Source: a phage. From it: a DNA stretch of 64,000 nt. The position numbers were made by a program, and so were the translations under genes. This document shows, one piece after another, positions 18,998 to 49,591 of the stretch. Each line of letters starts with the position of its first letter. Position 1 is the first letter of the stretch. The notes below the pieces were generated by a model. It saw only the letters and a program-made list of their open reading frames with translations, did not search any database and was not told the origin of the DNA. Where the stretch lies: the sequence record PQ724393.1, one strand, 5' to 3'.

Positions 18998-19311
18998 CTC
19001 TTAGATTTAATTTTATCCAGTTCTTCTTGTATTTGCATTGTAACACATTTTTCTACATGAAGCGCTAGCTCTTCTTTTCGGTCTTCGGAAGGTGTTCCGA
19101 AATCAACCGACACTTTTCCATCTTTCTCAATAACAATATTCATCACATAAACGATGTGAGCAGTGCCATCGGGTAAAGTAAGCATAATTTCCTGCTTAAC
19201 CGAACCCATTGACTTACGGATTATATCTAATGATTTCTCATAATAACGAGGGTCACTAGGACCCTCTTCGGTATCTTTAACAAAATTATCTAAATCAGAT
19301 AAATCAGTCAT
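18982..19311 (-). CDS. 40: gp40-like protein (head vertex assembly chaperone position)
   Basis: 109 aa between uvsX and 41 as in T4. Confidence 0.6.
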   Translation of the reverse strand: MTDLSDLDNFVKDTEEGPSDPRYYEKSLDIIRKSMGSVKQEIMLTLPDGTAHIVYVMNIVIEKDGKVSVDFGTPSEDRKEELALHVEKCVTMQIQEELDKIKSKRWWKW

Positions 19312-20485
19312 GGTCGCTCACAAAATTCATATTTTCTAAATCGTTTTCTATATCAGCGGCGCTTTGGGTATTTCCACCTAATTTAACAGCAACGTTCTTA
19401 GAGACACGAGAGTTAATAAGGTCGTTCACCGCATCGTCAACTTCTTTAATAGAATTAATTGCACCGAGCTTATACTTATTCTCGATTGCTTCACGGAACG
19501 GAGCATGTTTAAACAGCGGTCCCCAGAACTCGACACAATCGGTAGCTTTAGCACGCCATGATTTTTCTTCTTGAACCATTTCACCTGTGGTTTCGTCAAG
19601 GAATGCACGATTATACCAACCAGCTTTAGGTTTCACAACAAAGCCAATATCAGTAGCCATTTCAAGCAATCCACTGAATGGGTCGATACCACCTTCAAAG
19701 TTCACAGTAATTGGGAACGTTGATTTCTCTTTAACAGTACGAGATTTTTCGGCCTTCAGGGTGAAGTCATAACCAGTGAGCTCGGTGCCATCTTTAACCT
19801 GACGTTTAGAGATAAAGAATACGGTAGAAGCAGAGTACAGAATACCGGTACCGCCACCCATAATCTCTTTAGGATACATTCCACCAATTTCCATAGCCGT
19901 ATGGTTAATTGCTACACAAGGGATATCCTTGATGGTCAGATAAGGTGTTACGATACGGAACAGAGATTTCAGTGACTTAGCACGGGTCATATCACCTACA
20001 ACTTTCTCGTTCAAAGCATCTTCGGTTTCTTTCTTAGAAGCGGTGTTACCGATGGAGTCGATAAAGATAATAACCTTTTCACCACGAGTAATTTCTTCTA
20101 ATTGGTTGGTCATGTCAACCTTCAGTTGTTCAACTGACTGGATTGGCGTATGAACCACACGTTCCAGGTCAACACCCATTGAACGGAAATAAGATTCTGA
20201 AGCACCGAACTCAGAGTCATAGAACAAGCAAATTGCGTCTGGATATTTCTTCATATATGCCGCAACCATAGTTAATCCAAACAACGTTTTAAAGTGTTTA
20301 GACGGCGCAGCAAAGATTGTCAAACCTGATTGTAAGCCTGCATTCAACGCACCACCCAATGCAATATTAAGCATAGGAATACGAGTAGGAACTTCGTCAC
20401 GACCATTAAACAATTTAGATTTGGTCAGGTCGGCAGTCATTTTAGAAGTAGAAGCTTTAATCAAACGGGATTTTAAATCAGACAT
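19304..20485 (-). CDS. uvsX: UvsX RecA-like recombinase
   Basis: 393 aa; MSDLKSRLIKASTSK N-terminus and RecA core match recalled T4 UvsX. Confidence 0.93.
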   Translation of the reverse strand: MSDLKSRLIKASTSKMTADLTKSKLFNGRDEVPTRIPMLNIALGGALNAGLQSGLTIFAAPSKHFKTLFGLTMVAAYMKKYPDAICLFYDSEFGASESYFRSMGVDLERVVHTPIQSVEQLKVDMTNQLEEITRGEKVIIFIDSIGNTASKKETEDALNEKVVGDMTRAKSLKSLFRIVTPYLTIKDIPCVAINHTAMEIGGMYPKEIMGGGTGILYSASTVFFISKRQVKDGTELTGYDFTLKAEKSRTVKEKSTFPITVNFEGGIDPFSGLLEMATDIGFVVKPKAGWYNRAFLDETTGEMVQEEKSWRAKATDCVEFWGPLFKHAPFREAIENKYKLGAINSIKEVDDAVNDLINSRVSKNVAVKLGGNTQSAADIENDLENMNFVSDHD

Positions 20486-20537
20486 TATATTTTTCCATAG
20501 GCATCATTATATTTTACTCACGTTTTAAGATAGGGTA

Positions 20538-20546
20538 ATTATATCA
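20538..20546 (-). promoter_or_regulatory. putative extended -10 promoter upstream of uvsX
   Basis: Coding strand TGATATAAT about 50 nt upstream of uvsX ATG; no clear -35. Confidence 0.3.
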
Positions 20547-20562
20547 CTTCACATTTACAGCG

Positions 20563-21456
20563 TTAAAGGACCACGTCCTCATAACTTGGCATTTCGTGCC
20601 CAGAATGGATATGGGCACCGAAATAAATGAATTCAGCCAGACCAGGATGGAATACTAAACCTGGGTTCTCATGATAAATGATATGCGGTCTTGATTTCAG
20701 AATCTGATAATACTCAACCTTACTCGGTTTGAATTTAACAATCTCTACATCAGGACGATAGTCTTCACGCTTAAATGAATCATTAGGGTTGGTGATATAA
20801 AGACGAGCACCTTCAGCCGCAGCTTGGTCTACAACTCTTTCGAATTGATAGCACTTATCCGAAATACGGAATGGATGGAAAATACCATCAATTTTAATAG
20901 GCGCTAGACCTTCAGAGTAACGCTCAATTACTGCAGGATTAATTACCTTTTGGTCTACAAAAATCTTATCAGAGGATGCACCTCGTGACACCAGGACGTC
21001 TTTCTGGCATTGATTCAGGACTGTAGTATAAAGTGAACGTTCAACTGAAGCCACATCAATATCAATGAACTCGTCGATATAATAACGAGGAACTTCAGGG
21101 TCCATTGTGATATTAAAGTTGAATTGTACAGTATGAGCACCATCATAACCTGTGATATCGGTTACCAGTCCTGAGCAATCATAGTATTCGATTAGTGAAT
21201 CGACTACAAACTCATTTTCAGACCAGAAATGTTTACGGGTTTCATAAGCATTTTCTTTATACCAAAGTGGTACGAAATTCAGTTCTGGGAATAATTCAAT
21301 GCATTCTTTGATATCGCTCGAATTTCTAGGATAAGCCAGATAATCACCTGGACGAGCACGATTTAAATGGAGTTGAAAATTGCCGTCCTTAAGGACGGCA
21401 TATTCACCTGTTTCGTAACTACGCATACTGAAAATAGGAACGATAAACAAACTCAT
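20563..21456 (-). CDS. hypothetical protein (297 aa) in beta-glucosyltransferase slot
   Basis: No similarity to recalled T4 beta-gt; ATGA-coupled to gene 42 stop. Confidence 0.6.
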   Translation of the reverse strand: MSLFIVPIFSMRSYETGEYAVLKDGNFQLHLNRARPGDYLAYPRNSSDIKECIELFPELNFVPLWYKENAYETRKHFWSENEFVVDSLIEYYDCSGLVTDITGYDGAHTVQFNFNITMDPEVPRYYIDEFIDIDVASVERSLYTTVLNQCQKDVLVSRGASSDKIFVDQKVINPAVIERYSEGLAPIKIDGIFHPFRISDKCYQFERVVDQAAAEGARLYITNPNDSFKREDYRPDVEIVKFKPSKVEYYQILKSRPHIIYHENPGLVFHPGLAEFIYFGAHIHSGHEMPSYEDVVL

Positions 21457-22151
21457 TTCAGGAAACCTCGGACGTAGTCAAAATCACGTTCAAACACGTG
21501 TGCACTTACCATGGTGTGGGAATACGTACCTAAACCAACACCACACTGTTCAGCAATAAATGCCATCAGTTTACCCTGCAGATAGAAATCCAGCTGCATA
21601 ACAACAGCGCAGTTTTGTGAACGCATATGGGTGTGTGCATACAAACGCCCGTCACGAATATAATACGTTACCGAATCGGTGCAAGGGTATTCTAAGGATT
21701 CGTCAGAATCAAGGAGGGCTTGGTCTTGTTCTTGGAGAATCTGGAACACAACTCTTCGCGAGTTGGCCTTTTCTTTAAGCTCTTTAAGTAGGGCTGGGAG
21801 TTGGGCCGCAATTCGAGGTCCATAGAAAGTGTTGAAGTTTGCAGGCAATACGTCACTTTTCGGCTTATCAATGAACTTAGCAACATTAGGGTATTCCTTA
21901 AATGCTTCGGCAGCGTCAGTACCACCAGAAATCATAAATTTCCAAAAGGATTCGGCATATTCATAACTGATACGATTGATACGTGGGTCGGTGAATTTAT
22001 AGGTGCTGACATCCAGTACTTCTATAGAAGCAGAACCAATTTCATAACAACGTCCGATACGAGAATCAACTGCAAACTGTGGAGCTTCCAGGATTTCTTC
22101 GTTCATTTGTTTAAATGCATTTTCAAAACTAACAGCGGTAATGTGTTTCAT
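21453..22151 (-). CDS. 42: dCMP hydroxymethylase-like enzyme (thymidylate synthase fold), gp42 position
   Basis: 232 aa; EYPCTDSVTYYIRD...HMRSQN resembles T4 gp42 FMCTNTVQYLIRD...MRSND; divergent. Confidence 0.7.
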   Translation of the reverse strand: MKHITAVSFENAFKQMNEEILEAPQFAVDSRIGRCYEIGSASIEVLDVSTYKFTDPRINRISYEYAESFWKFMISGGTDAAEAFKEYPNVAKFIDKPKSDVLPANFNTFYGPRIAAQLPALLKELKEKANSRRVVFQILQEQDQALLDSDESLEYPCTDSVTYYIRDGRLYAHTHMRSQNCAVVMQLDFYLQGKLMAFIAEQCGVGLGTYSHTMVSAHVFERDFDYVRGFLK

Positions 22152-22684
22152 TTATTCACCTTATTTTCAATATATTCGTTCAGACGTTTTAATTCTACCA
22201 TATCAACATTAAGCAAATTATTATGGCCGTCATGATTTAAGATTTTAAACACGTTTTCAAAACATGTTTCGTATTGCTGGATAGTTAGGTTGAACTCATC
22301 TTTGGTTAATTTAATAAGGTCATCTTCGAAGTCTTCGTCTAATGGGTTGCGAGTTAAAATAACTTCGATAACGTTAAATTCAGATTTAAACCCTTTCCAA
22401 TCTTCCAGTTCTACATAAGGGTCCATTTCACCACGAAGGAATCCCGAGTAAACAATATTACTAGGATACCCACGGTCTAAGATGTAGACAAAATTAGGGT
22501 CTAAAAACTTATACAGAGTTTCAACTAAAGCCTTGTCATTATCAGTCCCTAATGAAATGCATTTGCCATTAATCTTTTTAGGGAAATCAATAAGACGATA
22601 TTTCTTATCAGATAAAAGTGATTCAATTAAAGTAGACTTCCCGGAATTATCCGGGCCGTCGATAACAATGATTTTTGGTTTCAC
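22148..22684 (-). CDS. P-loop kinase (thymidylate/dNMP-kinase-like)
   Basis: 178 aa; Walker A IIVIDGPDNSGKST, DRGY motif; GTG start overlapping upstream stop. Confidence 0.6.
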   Translation of the reverse strand: MKPKIIVIDGPDNSGKSTLIESLLSDKKYRLIDFPKKINGKCISLGTDNDKALVETLYKFLDPNFVYILDRGYPSNIVYSGFLRGEMDPYVELEDWKGFKSEFNVIEVILTRNPLDEDFEDDLIKLTKDEFNLTIQQYETCFENVFKILNHDGHNNLLNVDMVELKRLNEYIENKVNK

Positions 22685-23064
22685 GGATGATATGCCTTAT
22701 AACTATCAAGAGTTCCTTCACGAACCAATTCTTTAAAGTGGTCTGGACGGATTGCTCGGTCATCGATGATAAAAGTATAACTCGGCTTGTGTGTAAGCAA
22801 ATTGTGATATTTCAATCCAATTTTTTCAAGGTTCTTAACCAATGCAGGAACTACTTCAACCAAGATTCGACCTGGGCCACATGAAGTCATGCCACGGGCA
22901 GTGAATAATGTAATCTCGTACCCTTCATCATAAAGCTTATTAATCATGGACACCATTTCGGTGTCCGGTTTAAAGTTCTCATAATCACGGTCATGGTTCC
23001 AAATCGTGATTGTGTTATCGATATCAAAACATAAATGTGGCTTATTTTCTACTCGATGCGACAT
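22681..23064 (-). CDS. HAD-superfamily phosphatase
   Basis: 127 aa; motif I CFDIDNTIT (DxDxT); start reset to ATG 23064 (TAATG overlap). Confidence 0.6.
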   Translation of the reverse strand: MSHRVENKPHLCFDIDNTITIWNHDRDYENFKPDTEMVSMINKLYDEGYEITLFTARGMTSCGPGRILVEVVPALVKNLEKIGLKYHNLLTHKPSYTFIIDDRAIRPDHFKELVREGTLDSYKAYHP

Positions 23065-24737
23065 TAAATTTTCTTCCATTGTTTGTGGAGTTCAGTAGAA
23101 CCTGTAGGTTTATATTTTACACCAGTTTCCTGGTCAAGCAAAACCCACTTATCAGGACAACGAGTAATAATTTGAGCCGTGATAGGGTCACGAACTTCAT
23201 CGACAAATTCACCAGTAATAAGCTTACGCTTACGAGGATGCCGCTTCAGCAGCACACTCAGTTGGTACAAACCGTTATAATAAGCACCCAGAGCTTTCAG
23301 AGGGTTATTCTTAAAGTAACCTGCCAGAGCCATCCAAATAACAGCAATCCAGAGCTTGTGCTTAAATGTGCACATAGGAATATCGTCTAAAGGCATAACC
23401 TTTTCAATATCAACGAATACACGAGTTCCATTACGAGTTAATCCACCCCATAGAGGGTCTGAGTTAAATTTGTCATAGCCATCGATAGAATAAAGCACCT
23501 TAGCTTCATCATAAATCGCAGGGCCTTTAGAACTATTACCGAAATAACCACGTGGGTCGATGATTTTAATATCACCTTCGTCCGACAGCATAATATTACT
23601 GTAGTGCGGGTCGCCATGAATAAGTTGGTACGGCTCTTTATGTTCAGACAGAATTTCTAGTGCGTGGCGGAGAAGTTTTTCAGGGTCGCCTACTTTGAAA
23701 TCGTTAACATGGGTAATGCCTTGTGGAGCAAAGCCTTCAATCAATCCAGCAATAGAAGCATTACGAATAAGGACCTTGTCCAATACTTCTTTCTTAACAT
23801 CAGAATACCATTGCTCATCGGACGGATTATCGATAGTTCCACCAAATGAACGTAATGCACTAATGACCTTATAAACCATGAGGACTTTAGTTTCTTTAGA
23901 CATAAACCGGTAGGCATCTGCCATGGTGCGACCAAAGATACGTTCCATTTTAATGAATTCGCCTGGAGCAAAGTCTACAATGCTCGGAACAAATTCAGAA
24001 TCAATAGAATTATACCAATTGATTTCTTTAGATTGGATTTCTTTACCTAATTCGTTGGTAGGTACTTTAATAGCCAGATTCTCAGTGAACTCTAATTTAT
24101 TAAATTCACGGTTAATTTCAGAATCTTCATGGGCCCTAGCCAGTTTCAATTTGTCACCGACATCAACCACAAAGTCCAGCTTACGTTCAGTCAAATGGAC
24201 CATCGAATCCAGGTTGTCTGCAAGGTCTTCGCCATAATTAGAACGGTCGAAACCTGTCCAATTAGCCACCTGATACAAACCAACCACACCACCGCCAGTA
24301 CCAATTTCACGCAAGTACGGTTCTTCAAATGTAAAACGACAGTCGGTCCCATAGGTATAACAGTAGTCGTTATCCCACTCAACTTTATGACCTTCAGGAA
24401 TAATATCACACCAGTTAAACAAGACATTATGCCCGATGATATCTTCGGCAATGCAATCGATAGCATGAGCTGAACCGTTGGCCACATCTACGTTACGAAT
24501 AGTGAATTTAGGCTTATCACTGGTAATCATGTTAATGGATTTAATGTAACCCTTAACGAGGTCATTAAATTTGCTGTGAATAACCAGAATAATTTCATCT
24601 GATTGGTTACTATACAAATCATACAAATGTTTTAGTACTGTATGCTGTTTGTAGTTAACCAATACCTTCGGGATTTCGTTAGTAATTGGATACAACCGTG
24701 AGCCAAGACCCGCGCCTAAAATAACAACCTTTTTCAT
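23064..24737 (-). CDS. bifunctional sugar-1-phosphate nucleotidyltransferase / kinase
   Basis: 557 aa; N-terminus VVILGAGLGSRLYPIT (GxGxRL of RmlA/GlmU-type); C-terminus LIHGDPHYSNIMLSDEGDIKIIDPRGYF (HGD..N...D APH/choline-kinase-like); SD GAGGAA before ATG 24737. Confidence 0.7.
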   Translation of the reverse strand: MKKVVILGAGLGSRLYPITNEIPKVLVNYKQHTVLKHLYDLYSNQSDEIILVIHSKFNDLVKGYIKSINMITSDKPKFTIRNVDVANGSAHAIDCIAEDIIGHNVLFNWCDIIPEGHKVEWDNDYCYTYGTDCRFTFEEPYLREIGTGGGVVGLYQVANWTGFDRSNYGEDLADNLDSMVHLTERKLDFVVDVGDKLKLARAHEDSEINREFNKLEFTENLAIKVPTNELGKEIQSKEINWYNSIDSEFVPSIVDFAPGEFIKMERIFGRTMADAYRFMSKETKVLMVYKVISALRSFGGTIDNPSDEQWYSDVKKEVLDKVLIRNASIAGLIEGFAPQGITHVNDFKVGDPEKLLRHALEILSEHKEPYQLIHGDPHYSNIMLSDEGDIKIIDPRGYFGNSSKGPAIYDEAKVLYSIDGYDKFNSDPLWGGLTRNGTRVFVDIEKVMPLDDIPMCTFKHKLWIAVIWMALAGYFKNNPLKALGAYYNGLYQLSVLLKRHPRKRKLITGEFVDEVRDPITAQIITRCPDKWVLLDQETGVKYKPTGSTELHKQWKKI

Positions 24738-24797
24738 TATCTGTTCCTCAAGTGAATGTAGGTACATTATACACTATTTTTAATAAATTGGTATTGC

Positions 24798-25298
24798 TTA
24801 AATCTTATCTTTACCGATTTCAATACACCGTTCTATTGCCGCCGGTACTTTGGTCTTGAGCTTATTGATTTGTTTCTTATAATCACGGGCTTTATCGAAG
24901 CTCTCGGTTTCGAGCATTTCGTAATAACGAGCCTCGTGGATGGAAATCTGTAGATTGATATGGTTTACGCACATCGCATACAGTTTCTGCTTTTTGTACA
25001 AATCATCTTGACGCTTCATTTCTGCCTGGTGTTTGGCTAGTACCGCTTCACGCTTAGACTCTTGTTCACGTTGGAATTCGATTTCCCTTTGAGCATATTT
25101 TGCACAGTTATTACCGCATTGATTATTAGCTCGGGTATACACAAGCCCAGAACCAGCACGGAATTTCATTTCACCGTCATATTGTTTCTGTTCAGCTGCG
25201 ATACGAGCTTTACCAACTTCATCAGCCGAAACTGCATCGCCATATTGGACCGCGCAACCTGATAGGAGCATACTCATTGCGATAATTAACTTTTTCAT
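24798..25298 (-). CDS. putative lipoprotein (166 aa)
   Basis: Signal peptide with lipobox LLSGC; SD AAGGGAA. Confidence 0.6.
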   Translation of the reverse strand: MKKLIIAMSMLLSGCAVQYGDAVSADEVGKARIAAEQKQYDGEMKFRAGSGLVYTRANNQCGNNCAKYAQREIEFQREQESKREAVLAKHQAEMKRQDDLYKKQKLYAMCVNHINLQISIHEARYYEMLETESFDKARDYKKQINKLKTKVPAAIERCIEIGKDKI

Positions 25299-25307
25299 GG
25301 AATTCCC

Positions 25308-25544
25308 TTACTGTTTAACAATAATGATTTGTGCATTTGATTTACGTTCAGCGACGATGGCCCAGATTAAAGCCACTACCCAACCAATCATCGTCCAACC
25401 CAACAGGAGGTTTAGGAAGAAAATTCCGACATTACTACGAGTGCCTCGCAGAAGAGCCAGAATCCATGGTAAAAAGTAACCGATGAACATAATAACCAGA
25501 GAACCGAATCCTAAAACACCAGCACTAACGATTAAAGCTTCCAT
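25308..25544 (-). CDS. two-TM membrane protein, Imm-like (superinfection immunity position)
   Basis: 78 aa, two hydrophobic helices; immediately before gene 43 as T4 imm; promoter and SD GAGGAAA. Confidence 0.55.
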   Translation of the reverse strand: MEALIVSAGVLGFGSLVIMFIGYFLPWILALLRGTRSNVGIFFLNLLLGWTMIGWVVALIWAIVAERKSNAQIIIVKQ

Positions 25545-25574
25545 TGTAATTTCCTCATGTAGTTGATAGGAAGG

Positions 25575-25604
25575 ATACTACCACGTTCCTTGTGGTATGT
25601 AAAC
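25575..25604 (-). promoter_or_regulatory. early promoter upstream of imm-like gene
   Basis: GTTTAC-18-TAGTAT. Confidence 0.5.
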
Positions 25605-25606
25605 AC

Positions 25607-28318
25607 TTAAAAGTCGAACATATCAAATAATGTTGCTTTTTTCTCGTAGTCGATTTTAGCAGACTCAGTAAAACCAGTCAGAGGCTTGATAAAGGTCTTT
25701 TGGAACAGTACGTTGTAGTCCATCCAACGGAGGACTTGGTCACGAATCTGAATCGGAAGTTCAATACCTGACGGCCATGCCATACAAGCTTCACCGAACG
25801 GGTTGCCTTCTTTAAGCGGCAGTACATATACCTTTTCACCATCAACGATACGAGGCATAGTCAAATCACCTGCAGAAGCACGCATGTAAGCTAAGCAACC
25901 TTTGATGTGGTACGGGCATTTAGAACCAGGGAATCCGCCTTCATTATATTTCTCGATGTTGTTAGCACTGGATACTGCTGCAATGCTTACATAGTTGAGT
26001 TCGTTAAATTCCTTATTAAACTGTTTGAAATATTCTTGCAAAGATGCCTCACCTTCCTGAAGCATACGACGGATACATTCCTTCAGAGCTTTCTGAACTG
26101 CTTTAGGTGTACTTGATTTCTGAGTTTCGAGGCCCATGATTTTCAAGTGTGGTTCGGCATAACGAGTACCTTCCATGTCCCAAACGTTCAGTGCATAACG
26201 TTTCTTACCTGTCCAGAATCCACCAAGACCTTTAGAACCAAGTGGAGGACCTGCGATAGCTTCTCGGTCCATGAACATCAAGTGCTGTTTGTTGTTCATG
26301 TACTCGCACATCTCACGGAAGCCTGCATCAATAGCCGGTTCCATACGTTCACGTGCAAATTTATCTAAGAAGTCAACCCAGTGGTTAGTATCACGGAATT
26401 TGTCTTCGCCTACTTTATTGATGATTGCATCAGCCTTAACATAAATGGAGTCAGTATCACCATAGAGCACGAACTTCTGGTTTTCAGTCTTGCACACACC
26501 ATTCAGGTATTCGTTAACCTTACGTTCAATCCATTGGAGGGCCATTTGACCAAACAGTGTGATTGCAGTTGCGTTCCTGAGGTCGTAATAACGGAACCAT
26601 ACGTTACCAAGTGCACCATAAAGGGAGTTGATAAGCAACTTACGGTTAATCTGAGCAGTCATACCTGCAACTTCGGTACGTTCAGCTCTGAACAACATTT
26701 CTCTTAAAGAAGGTGCTGACAGCGTTTTAATCTTGGCTTTGATTTCGTCAGAGAAGTCAAAACGATAATCGATATCCAGTGGACTATCAGCCGAGAGATT
26801 AGGATTTTCTAATGCTTCTTTAATTAACTCACCATTACGTTGAGCTGCAAGCATATAACCTTTATGTTCTTTACGTTGTAAGAACACCTTAGTGATTTCT
26901 GTAGGAATAACACCATCGCGGTCTTTATAGTACATCATGCCGTTAGGAGAGCAACTGTAGACGTCGCTAGGACGCGGAGCTGTTCCGGCAATATATTCAT
27001 GTATCGGTGCGTTAGCGAATGTCCCTGCGATGGTCTCTGGGCTTATATTCACTTGTCGAATGATACTCGGGTACAGAGATGTAAGGTCGAAACTCATTAC
27101 ATATTTGTAAGCGTTAGGAATCGGTTCCTTAACGAAAGCACCAGGATAAGGTTGAACCACGTGTGAACGAGCTTGTGGAATTACCTTGCCTTGTTCTTTA
27201 AGGCTATTAAAGATAATAGCGTCCCAAGTCTTAATTGGACTAAACACCGACTGAATCTGCATCTTGGCATAATAACCCATGTCCAAACTCAGAAGAATGA
27301 ACTGACGCTTCATATCAATCTGCACTACACGATATACGTCGATAATGTTATAGGAAATATATCGTTGGTGGTTCGTCTCACGTAACTTAGAGATTGGACC
27401 ATCATATTTCAACTTACCCACTTTCAATTCATATTCAGAAACATAATCCAGAGAATAAGAAGGCTGGTTGGTGAAGCTGAATTTTTTATAGAGGTCGATA
27501 TAATCCAGAACAGAGATACCGAACAATGTAATGATTTCACGAGCACCGTACATGTTCTCAATAACTTTAACACGAGTTTTACGATGTGGGCTTAATCGCT
27601 TAGCAGTGTTCTCACCGAACAGATTTTTCAGACGGTTATAAACGTACGGTACGTCAAACGACTCAACGTTCCATCCAGTCAAAATCACAGGAGTTTTCTG
27701 TTGCCAGAAATTCAAGTACTCAAGCATCATTTCTTCTTCAGAATTAAACGGAAGATAAACGATTTTGTCAATGATTTCCTGTGGAACTTCGTCACCACCT
27801 TCGTCTTGGAGTTTCTCAGCGATTTTAATCGACCACTCTTCAACAGTACCATAAGGCGAAACTAAAAGGTCGAATACATAGAATTTATCGTCAATCGAGT
27901 CGTAGTGGGTAATGGCATCGATAGGATGTTTAGCCTGAGCTGGTTCAGGGAATCCATCAGGAGATGTTACCTCGATGTCGAAGTTAGCAATACGAATCTT
28001 AGAAGAATCATATTTGATTTCTTTACGATAGGTATCAGACAAATAGGCTAATTTATAGTCGTCCATACCCAGGGCTTCGAGACCCATATCATCCATACGT
28101 TTCATCCATTGGGATGCATCACGCATAGAATCGAATTCTTTCTTAACACAACCCTTACCATAGATATCAATGTATTTTACGGCTTGCTCTGGGTTAGCAT
28201 GCATAAACATTGTGGGCTTGTATGGAACTTCACGACTACGTTCGTTACCATTTTTATCGATGTAACGTTCGAGAATATTATCACCGATTTGTTCGACTGT
28301 CAAATAGAATTCTTGCAT
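25607..28318 (-). CDS. 43: DNA polymerase gp43 (family B, with 3'-5' exonuclease)
   Basis: Start reset to MQEFYLTVEQ... (ATG 28318, SD AAAGGA); exo motif FDIEV; YGDTDS polymerase motif; strong similarity to recalled RB69/T4 gp43. Confidence 0.95.
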   Translation of the reverse strand: MQEFYLTVEQIGDNILERYIDKNGNERSREVPYKPTMFMHANPEQAVKYIDIYGKGCVKKEFDSMRDASQWMKRMDDMGLEALGMDDYKLAYLSDTYRKEIKYDSSKIRIANFDIEVTSPDGFPEPAQAKHPIDAITHYDSIDDKFYVFDLLVSPYGTVEEWSIKIAEKLQDEGGDEVPQEIIDKIVYLPFNSEEEMMLEYLNFWQQKTPVILTGWNVESFDVPYVYNRLKNLFGENTAKRLSPHRKTRVKVIENMYGAREIITLFGISVLDYIDLYKKFSFTNQPSYSLDYVSEYELKVGKLKYDGPISKLRETNHQRYISYNIIDVYRVVQIDMKRQFILLSLDMGYYAKMQIQSVFSPIKTWDAIIFNSLKEQGKVIPQARSHVVQPYPGAFVKEPIPNAYKYVMSFDLTSLYPSIIRQVNISPETIAGTFANAPIHEYIAGTAPRPSDVYSCSPNGMMYYKDRDGVIPTEITKVFLQRKEHKGYMLAAQRNGELIKEALENPNLSADSPLDIDYRFDFSDEIKAKIKTLSAPSLREMLFRAERTEVAGMTAQINRKLLINSLYGALGNVWFRYYDLRNATAITLFGQMALQWIERKVNEYLNGVCKTENQKFVLYGDTDSIYVKADAIINKVGEDKFRDTNHWVDFLDKFARERMEPAIDAGFREMCEYMNNKQHLMFMDREAIAGPPLGSKGLGGFWTGKKRYALNVWDMEGTRYAEPHLKIMGLETQKSSTPKAVQKALKECIRRMLQEGEASLQEYFKQFNKEFNELNYVSIAAVSSANNIEKYNEGGFPGSKCPYHIKGCLAYMRASAGDLTMPRIVDGEKVYVLPLKEGNPFGEACMAWPSGIELPIQIRDQVLRWMDYNVLFQKTFIKPLTGFTESAKIDYEKKATLFDMFDF

Positions 28319-28378
28319 TTCATTTCCTTTATAGACGAGTGATTGTCTTTTGTTTGTTGATGAATCATTATACTCCAA

Positions 28379-46075: not shown

Positions 46076-47056
46076 TTATTTCAGAAGTGTAACTTCAGCG
46101 ATTTCGCTCCAGTCATTTTTATCGGTGGCAATGAAGTCCGCCAGATAAAGAGCCGTACGTAATGATACGTTACGAAGACGAGATACATTGGCCTTCATCC
46201 AGGACAGTGCTTGATAAGTCTCAGCATCAGTCAGACCTCGATTTTGCAACATATCAGTGGAAAGGATAACGTCTTCAACACGAACCATAATCTCTTCGTT
46301 AGAGTGAACTCCGAGGTCTAAGTAAACTGAACGAGATACTAAAGCCTGGAGGTGTGGAGCAAGTTTAGTGCCACGTTCTAATTCACGGTCAATATCAACG
46401 TTGGTGATGAACACGATGGTGCCTTCATATTCGAATTCTTTATCGATATTTTTATCATCGAGGTAAGAACTTGAAGTGCTCCAGCACACCTTACGTTTTT
46501 CACCGGTATCCAATGCCGCTTTTAACAGGTTCAGGATATCCATATCAGAGAATACATCGACATCATCGATAAGAAGAACACTATTAGGGCCGCGGTTATT
46601 CCAAAGCTGCTCGTAAAGACCGATTCCACTAATCTTTCCGTTGATTGATTTATATTCGATAGTTTCATTTTCGTGGGCATTCTGTAATGCTTTATCCAAA
46701 GAATACGTTTTACCAATACCTGCGGCACCAGAGATGATAAGGGAACGAATTTTACCATCGATGATTCCGTTAGTCATCATGTTCATTACTTTAAAACGTT
46801 TGTTGATGCGATGCTTCATTTCTTCAGCGGATTCAGTAACCATTGCAGGAGCTTCAGCACCTTCCATTTCAACATCACATTTGAACACCCATATACCACG
46901 TTCAACACCATCAATCTGTACGAATACCTTACCATCACCGAGGTGAGCTTCGGATTCATGAATTTTGTTAGGGAACCAGGTTTTACCTGAACTCATGAAC
47001 GTACCAGAGATTTCATTACCGCGATAGATACCTTTGTTGATTTTGATAGTTAACAT
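46076..47056 (-). CDS. P-loop NTPase (Walker A/B), family unassigned
   Basis: Start reset to ATG 47056 (SD GGAGAA); Walker A ISGAAGIGKT, Walker B VLLIDDVD. Confidence 0.6.
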   Translation of the reverse strand: MLTIKINKGIYRGNEISGTFMSSGKTWFPNKIHESEAHLGDGKVFVQIDGVERGIWVFKCDVEMEGAEAPAMVTESAEEMKHRINKRFKVMNMMTNGIIDGKIRSLIISGAAGIGKTYSLDKALQNAHENETIEYKSINGKISGIGLYEQLWNNRGPNSVLLIDDVDVFSDMDILNLLKAALDTGEKRKVCWSTSSSYLDDKNIDKEFEYEGTIVFITNVDIDRELERGTKLAPHLQALVSRSVYLDLGVHSNEEIMVRVEDVILSTDMLQNRGLTDAETYQALSWMKANVSRLRNVSLRTALYLADFIATDKNDWSEIAEVTLLK

Positions 47057-47093
47057 TATATTCTCCGTTTCACTCAGTAGATTTGATAGGTCC

Positions 47094-47122
47094 ATAATAA
47101 CATGCTCTACGAGGTTGTAAAC
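47094..47122 (-). promoter_or_regulatory. putative early promoter
   Basis: GTTTAC-17-TATTAT upstream of P-loop NTPase gene. Confidence 0.45.
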
Positions 47123-47140
47123 ACTTTTTTGCACTAAACC

Positions 47141-47165
47141 CAAAAAAGGACCCCGAAGGGTCCTA
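47141..47165 (-). terminator. rho-independent terminator
   Basis: AGGACCC-TTCG-GGGTCCT followed by TTTTTTGGG. Confidence 0.7.
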
Positions 47166-47387: not shown

Positions 47388-48369
47388 GATACACCTCTTC
47401 GACGAACTTGTCCCAGAACTTCATGTCCACCTTCGCAGGCATACCGTTCTTAGCAGCCCAGATGGCATTGGTTTCGACTTCGTCTACAATAGCTTCAAGT
47501 TCGGCCTGCACATCTTTAAAAGCATGTAACCCCTGTTTGATTTCAAGGATAAATGGCGCAGTACGTAAAGGGTATTGAAGGTCACCAGTTTGATAGATTT
47601 CCTTCAACTGGTATCCGGCCCTATAAGCATGACTCAGAGCTTTCCAGTCAATACCTTCATTGGCTTCTGCCTTACGAGCACGTTCACCATATTCGGCGTC
47701 AAGCTTATTCAGAGATTGCTTGAGCTCGATTAATGACAAAGTAGTCTGATATTTACGTCCGAGAACAGTATAGAACGTTTGTGGGCCTGTTTTCTCATGG
47801 TTATGGAATACCCATTCACAGAATTCGTTTTCAGGGAGCCGATGTTTGATATCTTCTACCTTAGTGCGACGAAGACGGTCCGGAATTCCTTCTTGATAAT
47901 CAACCCATTGTTCAGGAATCTGGTTGACTATTGCCAATACACCACGCAGAGCAGCCAGTCGAGAACCTTTAACACCATATTTGGAAGCTTGCTTGCGGAC
48001 ATACCCTAAATAGGCTTTCATGTTGGTTGTATAGAACCGTGAACGGTTGTCTTGGATAAATTTCCATACGTCAGGTAAATCGGATTTGACAACCAGGTCA
48101 GCCGGTGTGTGAATCATGTCCAGGGCAACGGTTTCGCCATCGGCTGCCAGTTTAAAGAAATATTTCAGACTATAAAGTTCATGGTCAACATCATCTTTTG
48201 TATTTTTGGTAGCCGTGTTATTCGTGTTCAGGTTTGTATGGTTCATAGCCGTACCTAACAGAATATCACGCGGATGTGGAACAAAGATTTCTTTAAAATC
48301 GATATCAGATTCCGGAGTACTTGTTCCATAAAGGTGGGAGCCAAAATATCCCTTCATAACTGTTCTCAT
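47359..48369 (-). CDS. nucleotidyltransferase-fold protein (Pol-beta superfamily)
   Basis: 336 aa; N-terminal FGSHLYGTSTPESDIDF (GS-x9-13-DxD signature). Confidence 0.6.
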   Translation of the reverse strand: MRTVMKGYFGSHLYGTSTPESDIDFKEIFVPHPRDILLGTAMNHTNLNTNNTATKNTKDDVDHELYSLKYFFKLAADGETVALDMIHTPADLVVKSDLPDVWKFIQDNRSRFYTTNMKAYLGYVRKQASKYGVKGSRLAALRGVLAIVNQIPEQWVDYQEGIPDRLRRTKVEDIKHRLPENEFCEWVFHNHEKTGPQTFYTVLGRKYQTTLSLIELKQSLNKLDAEYGERARKAEANEGIDWKALSHAYRAGYQLKEIYQTGDLQYPLRTAPFILEIKQGLHAFKDVQAELEAIVDEVETNAIWAAKNGMPAKVDMKFWDKFVEEVYLDNHNSYYR

Positions 48370-49133
48370 TATTCACCTCTTTCATAGTCTTCAATAAATT
48401 GCATAATTAAACGTTGATAGTTGGATTTGGGATATCCTAATTTACTAATATAGGTTCCGAAAGCTCCACGCTTAGGCCTATTTAATTTAACCCATAAAGA
48501 ATAAAGCAAATCATAATCTTGCCAATGTTTCCCTATTCTTTGCTTTGCTTTAGAAGCATCAGATTGCCTCTTTTTAGTCTCTGGATTATTTAGAGATTTC
48601 TTAACAGCATTCGAATGCCTTTCTCTAACATCAGGGCGTTTAAATGCTTCTTTAATAGCTTTAGAAATTTTCTCTTTAACTTCAGGACGGTTTTGAGCTT
48701 CTATTTGAGCCGCCGACATTTTATCTTTTATTTCTGGTAGACTCATAGTTATAGAACGTTTATTTCTATATTCTTCAGTCTTCCATATTTCTTTCATCGT
48801 ATTTGAGTGAATTTCTGAAAATTTTTCTCTAACTAATTGATACCCTCTAGAAGTTAGTTTAAGATTTCTTCCTAAAGAATCCTCGCCAAAGTTATAAAAT
48901 GACCACCAGGCATAAATTAATCCTGAAGAATCAGAATGAATTCTAGCTAGAAGCCAGTGTGCTATAAAATGTTCTCTAGCTGTCAACAGAACCAAATTAT
49001 TAGGTTCATCACTCCCGCCAATACATGACGGGATTATATGATGGGACTCTGTATAAAAATTTAATTTGGATTTGTCTAATCCTCTAAGTTTACCTCTTTG
49101 GATTAGACTATCATAAAGCTTGGTATAATTCAT
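48369..49133 (-). CDS. HNH homing endonuclease (Mob-like)
   Basis: HNH core ESHHIIPSCIGGSDEPNNLVLLTAREHFIAH; repetitive basic C-terminus; no SD before ATG 49133. Confidence 0.7.
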   Translation of the reverse strand: MNYTKLYDSLIQRGKLRGLDKSKLNFYTESHHIIPSCIGGSDEPNNLVLLTAREHFIAHWLLARIHSDSSGLIYAWWSFYNFGEDSLGRNLKLTSRGYQLVREKFSEIHSNTMKEIWKTEEYRNKRSITMSLPEIKDKMSAAQIEAQNRPEVKEKISKAIKEAFKRPDVRERHSNAVKKSLNNPETKKRQSDASKAKQRIGKHWQDYDLLYSLWVKLNRPKRGAFGTYISKLGYPKSNYQRLIMQFIEDYERGE

Positions 49134-49591
49134 TATGGATTTGTTTTGTCCTCGAAGTGGATTACAGGACACATCTTAGATTTACGAGCTTTAATGTATT
49201 GAATAACGATATTTTCTTTAGTTTCTCGGCCTTCACGCTCAGCTTGAATACGTTGCCATTCCTTTTCTTCTCTACGGGCATCATACCATGCGTGTAAATT
49301 CATCGCACCAAATGCCAAACCGATGGATAGTGCAATAATAAGAGCTATTACAATCAACCCTAAAACAAACCCTAGACTCAACAGAACAGGAGTACTTAAT
49401 ACAAAGAAATGCTCTAATACACCAGCTCCTGCAACAGTTAATCCAAAAAGCGTACTACCTGCAACAACAGCACAAGCAAAACAAGCCCAAATCATTTTCC
49501 AGAAATATGCACATAAAGAGTGTGGTCGAGAATGGCTGTCATAAAAACGGTCGTGTAATTTAACGTGCCAAGAGTTTGAATTGATAATCAT
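49133..49591 (-). CDS. membrane protein (152 aa)
   Basis: SD AAGGAAA; long hydrophobic segments then basic tail. Confidence 0.55.
   Translation of the reverse strand: MIINSNSWHVKLHDRFYDSHSRPHSLCAYFWKMIWACFACAVVAGSTLFGLTVAGAGVLEHFFVLSTPVLLSLGFVLGLIVIALIIALSIGLAFGAMNLHAWYDARREEKEWQRIQAEREGRETKENIVIQYIKARKSKMCPVIHFEDKTNP

Follow-up and report, generated by a model that had tools for sequence, protein, structure and literature searches.

The closest described relatives of the locus considered here, a five-gene cassette at positions 20563-24737 of a 64,000-nucleotide stretch of phage DNA (sequence record PQ724393.1; the whole stretch is called the window below), are the DNA-modification clusters of the Mosigviruses: RB69 gp45-gp55, the Afh genes of Escherichia phage HY126, and the clusters of Bas46, Bas47 and NP. 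The DNA of RB69, like that of Acinetobacter phage DLP3, carries mono- and poly-arabinosylated 5-hydroxycytosine with the sugar ether-linked directly to C5, and both RB69 gp48 and DLP3 gp80 convert dCMP to 5-hydroxy-dCMP (5hodCMP) using a bound flavin and oxygen that comes from O2, with 18O2 incorporation demonstrated for RB69 gp48 (Lee et al., NAR 2026, PMC13326640). Mosigviruses have two transferases and DNA that is mono- plus di-arabinosylated; an independent study of the Mosigvirus NP confirmed 5-ara-dC and 5-ara-ara-dC. Further afield, the clusters of DLP3 (gp76-gp83) and Rhizobium phage RL38J1 have a common core of a thymidylate-synthase homologue with Asn in place of Asp169 (D169N), a thymidylate kinase-like (TMPK-like) kinase and a GT-B transferase; with its three transferases DLP3 tri-arabinosylates its DNA, and RL38J1 attaches galactose and glucose. 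The TMPK-like kinase is kept in the RB69, DLP3 and RL38J1 clusters alike (PMC13326640). The T4 system (gp42, a-gt and b-gt) differs in that hydroxymethylation is folate-dependent, through an enzyme that keeps D169 and W80, and in that host UDP-glucose is used, so that T4 needs no sugar-activation genes; the locus described here has a hydroxylase-type enzyme instead, and three genes that would build the sugar donor.

The window comes from a T4-like phage that belongs to the genus Dhakavirus, its region 20400-24900 being 96.5% identical to CLB_P2, JS10 and JS98. Five translationally coupled open reading frames (ORFs), all on the minus strand, are flanked by uvsX (19304-20485) and by imm (25308-25544) and gene 43 (25607-28378). 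In an all-protein comparison, all five have colinear orthologues in the RB69 and HY126 loci, with E values of 1e-30 to 1e-147, well past chance. We conclude that the cassette very probably encodes, in its Dhakavirus form, the pathway by which arabinofuranosyl-5-hydroxycytosine takes the place of cytosine. The pathway as such is already known: it was elucidated in related phages during 2025-2026, and Lee et al. (NAR 2026, PMC13326640) count Dhakaviruses among some eleven groups of Straboviridae in which a syntenic cluster occurs, so that the novelty implied by an earlier note on this DNA, written from the letters alone, does not hold. Much else in that note proved accurate. The five ORFs lie where it had placed them, and the tight coupling that it described is found as ATGA, ATGA and GTGA junctions followed by a fourth that is either TAATG or a 16-nt overlap. 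It had also recognised the P-loop kinase and HAD phosphatase motifs and a 557-amino acid (aa) fused nucleotidyltransferase/kinase, and had described T4 as having b-gt downstream of gene 42 and only imm-type genes between 42 and 43; the T4 order is indeed 43, imm.1, imm, 42, b-gt, then segA and uvsX. The place of gene 42 and b-gt in T4 is taken here by the genes for the thymidylate-synthase homologue and the 297-aa transferase.

The Mosigvirus clusters have the same five enzymes at the same gene 43-uvsX location, and gp56 too. Here the order is gene 43, imm, a gene for a 166-aa lipoprotein, the fusion enzyme, the HAD phosphatase, the kinase, the thymidylate-synthase homologue, the transferase and uvsX, whereas in Mosigviruses it is gene 43, arabinose-5-phosphate isomerase, fusion enzyme, HAD phosphatase, U32-family protein, thymidylate-synthase homologue, transferase, kinase and uvsX. 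The kinase thus lies between the HAD and thymidylate-synthase-homologue genes in the Dhakavirus and beside uvsX in the Mosigviruses, and imm and the lipoprotein gene separate gene 43 from the cassette in the Dhakavirus only. The additional Mosigvirus genes are the isomerase (gp55), the U32-family protein (gp50) and a second transferase near rIIA, gp3, which is of the GT4 family and of the same type as DLP3 gp76-77.

The evidence on the base comes from the 232-aa protein (21453-22151, minus strand), a member of the thymidylate-synthase superfamily (PF00303, E 3.6e-13, 49.7 bits against a cut-off of 24.3). It matches PDB entries 9iqu, 9iqc and 9ir2 with E 1e-125, along with thymidylate synthase and MilA structures in the PDB. 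The 9iqu sequence is found by tblastn at 100% identity in HY126, a Mosigvirus close to RB69, and the 232-aa protein is 80% identical both to this HY126 enzyme and to RB69 gp48. We aligned it with MAFFT to E. coli ThyA (264 aa), JS10 td, T4 gp42, RB69 gp48 and the HY126 enzyme. In ThyA numbering it has C146, L143E, N177D, W80A and D169N, the last in the motif RSQN. Asn in place of Asp169 is the diagnostic signature of 5hodCMP synthases and was validated on nine further homologues (PMC13326640). All of the sequence features expected of a 5hodCMP synthase are therefore found together in this protein, namely the thymidylate-synthase fold, the catalytic C146, N177D (which specifies dCMP), D169N and homology to a verified member. 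It is most likely, on sequence grounds, a flavin/O2-dependent dCMP 5-hydroxylase rather than a functional gp42, and the base that accepts the sugar, through an ether link, is accordingly most likely 5-hydroxycytosine and not hydroxymethylcytosine, because of the D169N replacement, the loss of the folate-site residue W80 and the 80% identity to RB69 gp48 and the HY126 enzyme. A bona fide thymidylate synthase (td) and a gp1 kinase are also encoded by the phage, both separate from the cassette.

The 178-aa P-loop kinase (22148-22684, minus strand, GTG start) has a Walker A motif GPDNSGKS at residue 10. It is 38% identical to RB69 gp45, which Lee et al. have already modelled (PMC13326640), and to a 182-aa protein of HY126; DLP3 gp78 is another orthologue. 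While it matches PHROG 761 ("thymidylate kinase") at 5.5e-40, it falls below the cut-offs of the thymidylate kinase models (PF02223, 15.1 bits against 27; TIGR00041, 19 against 83), with the alignment covering the P-loop region only. PHROG 761 and the identity to RB69 gp45 place it, as judged by sequence, in a phage-specific TMPK-like group.

Two enzymes appear to activate the sugar. The 557-aa protein (23064-24737, minus strand) has both a PF00483 NTP_transferase domain (3e-08) and a PF01636 APH domain (8e-06), each above the gathering score, with the nucleotidyltransferase motif GAGLGSR (G-x-G-x-(G/S)-x-R) at residue 18 and the kinase motif HGDPHYSN (H-x-D-x4-N) at residue 384, and it matches PHROG 4098 with E 6.5e-269. 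It is colinear over its full length with a 562-aa protein of HY126 (42.5% identity over 576 aligned positions, E 8e-143), which corresponds to RB69 gp53+gp52 at 95-99%. The identification of this 562-aa ORF with AfhE rests on the wording of PMC13326640, which relays that AfhE, the nucleotidyltransferase/kinase fusion of HY126, phosphorylates arabinose 5-phosphate and later forms UDP-arabinose, and that AfhF, the HAD protein of HY126, takes the 5-phosphate off the 1,5-bisphosphate (He et al., Nat Chem Biol 2026). By this orthology, the 557-aa protein is predicted to be an arabinose-5-phosphate 1-kinase in its C-terminal, APH-type part and a UDP-arabinofuranose pyrophosphorylase in its N-terminal part. 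The 132-aa protein (22681-23079, minus strand; 127 aa if started at ATG 23064) has the HAD motif DIDNT at residue 19 and matches PDB 9iqw, which we take to be the HY126 phosphatase, with E 2.8e-54 and 1xpj with E 9e-12. It is 63% identical to a 128-aa protein of HY126 and 62% to RB69 gp51. No Pfam family was assigned to it, and its match to TIGR01689 (the EcbF/BcbF capsule phosphatases; E 6e-15, 55.3 bits against a cut-off of 162) marks a related fold rather than membership. We predict that it is an AfhF-like arabinofuranose-1,5-bisphosphate 5-phosphatase.

The remaining enzyme would transfer the sugar. The 297-aa protein (20563-21456, minus strand), which the earlier note had left unrecognised, is 66% identical to a 299-aa protein of HY126 and 70% and 62% identical to RB69 gp47 and gp46, which are one gene split by a sequencing error (PMC13326640). 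Its orthologues are thus RB69 gp46:47 and the HY126 299-aa protein, together with DLP3 gp79 and TH1_063 of the Shewanella phage Thanatos. Pfam gave no match for it. The 92 homologues collected, none of them named, come only from T4-like phages and metagenomes, with Serratia phage 92A1, Acj61 and Acj9 among the sources. A model predicted from 37 aligned homologues (pLDDT 95.1, pTM 0.90) has the two Rossmann domains of a compact GT-B glycosyltransferase, and BshA, PimA and WaaG are listed among the results for this model. Orthology is accompanied by synteny, the gene adjoining that of the thymidylate-synthase homologue as in the known clusters. From the modelled fold and the substrate suggested by the orthologues, the 297-aa enzyme is predicted to be the first, base-proximal DNA arabinofuranosyltransferase.

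Compared with the Mosigvirus clusters, the Dhakavirus cassette is a minimal, five-gene form, and this is the only mildly new point. We searched the window with tblastn at E <=10 and the complete genome of the close relative JS10, assembled from four pieces, at E <=1 (<=10 for a-gt), and used phmmer and a hidden Markov model (HMM) of the 297-aa family besides. Neither the window nor the JS10 genome yielded a homologue of the arabinose-5-phosphate isomerase, the U32-family protein or the gp3-like transferase above noise. T4 a-gt and b-gt had no match in either, in line with the earlier note, which could recognise neither gene in the window. The HMM found no paralogue of the 297-aa protein in the window or the whole JS10 genome, and among ten other large unannotated ORFs Pfam recognised neither a glycosyltransferase nor a SIS domain. 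Among phage-collection records, 463 matched the hydroxylase, 276 the isomerase and 212 the gp3-like transferase, the last being confined to Mosigvirus-like coliphages, Acinetobacter phages and one Tegunavirus.

These absences bear on both the product and the source of the sugar. Since a single transferase was found, and since Thanatos and the Prodigiosinella phage LC53 are reported to be mono-arabinosylated as against the di-arabinosylation of the two-transferase Mosigviruses, the product would be mono-arabinofuranosyl-5-hydroxycytosine. Thanatos (TH1_060-063), reported to have a single arabinosyltransferase, resembles the present locus in having one GT-B transferase of ~300 aa beside a thymidylate-synthase homologue and a fusion enzyme of ~560 aa; Thanatos and LC53 belong to other genera and infect other hosts than the Dhakavirus, and the likeness is taken from published reports. 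E. coli makes arabinose 5-phosphate through KdsD and GutQ, enzymes of Kdo synthesis, and because the phage isomerase is absent, we infer that arabinose 5-phosphate is drawn from these host enzymes. As for the U32-family protein, it is encoded in RB69 by gp50 at 26492-27661 and has no counterpart in the window. Proteins of the U32 family include oxygen-independent hydroxylases, namely RlhA (which makes 5-hydroxycytidine in rRNA), TrhP and UbiU/V. Speculatively, Mosigviruses, unlike Dhakaviruses, might be able to make 5-hydroxycytosine anaerobically.

Taken in order, the pathway would begin with gp56, the dCTPase/dUTPase, which by homology removes dCTP and yields dCMP. Its gene (13344-13862, minus strand), an accessory to the pathway outside the coordinates of the cassette, is present as the earlier note had said; it is 95% identical to RB69 gp56 by tblastn and corresponds to gene 56 in the JS10 annotation. 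The 232-aa enzyme would hydroxylate dCMP at C5 with flavin and O2, not folate, as its identity to RB69 gp48 and its D169N signature suggest. By analogy, the phage gp1 dNMP kinase, encoded outside the window, and the host NDP kinase would raise the product to 5-hydroxy-dCTP, which gp43 would incorporate. Meanwhile, D-arabinose 5-phosphate, presumably from host KdsD/GutQ, would be converted to arabinofuranose 1,5-bisphosphate by the C-terminal kinase domain of the 557-aa protein, the 132-aa phosphatase would then strip the 5-phosphate, and the N-terminal nucleotidyltransferase domain of the 557-aa protein would form UDP-arabinofuranose, all three steps following from orthology to AfhE and AfhF. 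Finally, the 297-aa enzyme would place arabinofuranose onto the 5-hydroxyl, and the modification would shield the phage DNA against restriction and CRISPR nucleases.

Several points weigh against this reading. We found no chemical analysis of Dhakavirus DNA in the accessible literature. The AfhE and AfhF steps rest on a second-hand account in PMC13326640, whose Table 1 and text differ in the order of the phosphatase and kinase steps. Single DLP3 transferases were inactive on 5-hydroxycytosine DNA, and first-transferase activity in vitro has not been shown for any phage (PMC13326640). A transferase with no sequence similarity to the known ones could also lie elsewhere in the genome. Lastly, since the fusion enzyme shares just 42.5% identity with its characterised counterpart and a phage isomerase is missing, the sugar is assigned less securely than the base.

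We therefore considered whether a stripped-down Dhakavirus pathway might follow a chemistry unlike the characterised one, either with a pentose other than arabinose or with the first sugar added at the nucleotide level before replication, and regard this as unlikely. Addition at the nucleotide level is conceivable because the TMPK-like kinase is conserved, and Lee et al. cannot tell whether the first arabinose joins the mononucleotide or the DNA (PMC13326640). Slimmer still is the chance that the same 5-hydroxycytosine base carries another activated pentose, e.g., ribose or xylose. The missing isomerase homologue, in the face of 276 phage records with one, would fit such a sugar, as would the fact that the fusion enzyme is the least conserved enzyme of the sugar branch, and the Thanatos homologue of the 297-aa protein has been reported to have UDP-xylose pyrophosphorylase activity in vitro. 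Nevertheless, the two enzymes that have to recognise the sugar, the phosphatase (63%) and the transferase (66-70%), remain close to their arabinose counterparts, and E. coli itself makes arabinose 5-phosphate. Lee et al., moreover, colour the Dhakavirus cluster as arabinosylation and treat Thanatos as mono-arabinosylated (PMC13326640). Arabinose, which the earlier note had raised as a possibility, is thus supported as the sugar because all five genes are orthologous to the RB69/HY126 arabinosylation cluster.

Highly improbable, by comparison, is the view taken in 2018 and in the earlier note, that the 232-aa enzyme is a divergent gp42 making 5-hydroxymethyl-dCMP and that arabinose is attached to hydroxymethylcytosine. 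The enzyme does belong to the thymidylate-synthase family and has C146, an acidic residue in place of L143 (D/E) and N177D in common with T4 gp42, several database records name the gene a dCMP hydroxymethyltransferase, and RB69 DNA was first reported to contain arabinosyl-hydroxymethylcytosine (PMC6024577). However, it is only 24.5% identical to T4 gp42 over 159 residues (E 2e-09; PDB 1b49, E 2.8e-04), against 80% to RB69 gp48 and the HY126 enzyme, and position 169 is Asp in T4 gp42, td and ThyA alike, with T4 gp42 also retaining W80. Weak similarity to gp42 combined with W80A and D169N does not fit a gp42-type dCMP hydroxymethylase. RB69 gp48 itself makes 5hodCMP, as established by nuclear magnetic resonance and mass spectrometry, 18O2 labelling and heterologous expression, with the sugar ether-linked to C5 (PMC13326640), and the independent study of Mosigvirus NP called the hydroxymethylcytosine assignment for RB69 erroneous. 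The earlier description of a "gp42-like enzyme" is therefore right as to the thymidylate-synthase family and wrong as to gp42 function, while its proposal of an activated sugar on a hydroxymethyl-pyrimidine stands, by orthology, for the activation and transfer of a sugar, with the base most likely being 5-hydroxycytosine instead.

We give the least credence of all to the cassette serving auxiliary host-surface metabolism (a capsule or lipopolysaccharide sugar) next to ordinary nucleotide metabolism, as the annotations "capsule biosynthesis protein", "phosphoheptose isomerase", "thymidylate kinase" and "thymidylate synthase" in relatives and the weak TIGR01689 match might suggest, for those names stem from sub-threshold similarity, the phage has its separate td and gp1 kinase, the cassette sits exactly at the T4 gene 42/b-gt position, and its orthologues are experimentally tied to DNA modification. 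The cassette genes are misleadingly annotated in the public records of close relatives (JS10 23453-24384 and others), where the HAD phosphatase appears as "phosphoheptose isomerase" or "capsule biosynthesis protein", the hydroxylase as "thymidylate synthase" or "deoxycytidylate 5-hydroxymethyltransferase" and the transferase as "hypothetical protein".

As regards expression of the cassette, a promoter and terminator scan of 20300-25700 gave 17 and 3 candidates against 15.5 and 3.4 in shuffled sequence, i.e., no excess. An extended -10-like element, TGTATAAT, lies at 24766-24773 on the minus strand, ~30 nt upstream of the start of the 557-aa ORF, with no recognisable -35 or MotA box; it may be the cassette promoter. 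An alternative ATG at 24767, which would lengthen the fusion enzyme to 567 aa, sits within this element; we rejected it as a start, since a GAGGAA ribosome-binding site precedes the ATG at 24737, where the JS10 annotation and the homology to HY126 also begin.

A few features around the cassette and elsewhere in the window are recorded here. The 166-aa ORF between imm and the cassette (24798-25298, minus strand) starts with MKKLIIAMSMLLSGC, which is a lipobox-containing lipoprotein signal. It belongs to no Pfam family, its PHROG match is 1754 (function unknown), and the Mosigvirus cluster has no counterpart; instead of taking part in the DNA-modification pathway, its product may be an envelope or superinfection-exclusion protein. 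Relative to JS10, the window lacks ~129 bp of the uvsX-transferase intergenic region (at 20486-20562) and, at 25299-25311, ~145 bp that in JS10 lie between imm and the lipoprotein gene and contain a 36-aa ORF. Conversely, ~770 bp at 48371-49144 are present here and absent in JS10. This stretch includes a 267-aa ORF (48369-49172, minus strand) with a weak HNH endonuclease match and probably represents a homing endonuclease inserted behind the nrdC.11 homologue. In the region corresponding to nrdC.10 of JS10, a 355-aa ORF (46076-47143, minus strand) has sub-threshold AAA/STAND NTPase matches and a C-terminal helix-turn-helix match.

For the Dhakaviruses, which are in use, and have been proposed, as phage therapy against E. 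coli diarrhoea, the arabinosylation pathway as read here predicts DNA with mono-arabinosyl-5-hydroxycytosine rather than hydroxymethylcytosine, dependence on host arabinose 5-phosphate and a need for molecular oxygen. These predictions are practical ones, and none of them changes the current picture of the pathway. Whether a given restriction, CRISPR or type IV system can act on these phages depends on the modification, which further prevents recombination with phages whose DNA has glucosylated hydroxymethylcytosine and makes therapeutic phages harder to sequence and engineer.

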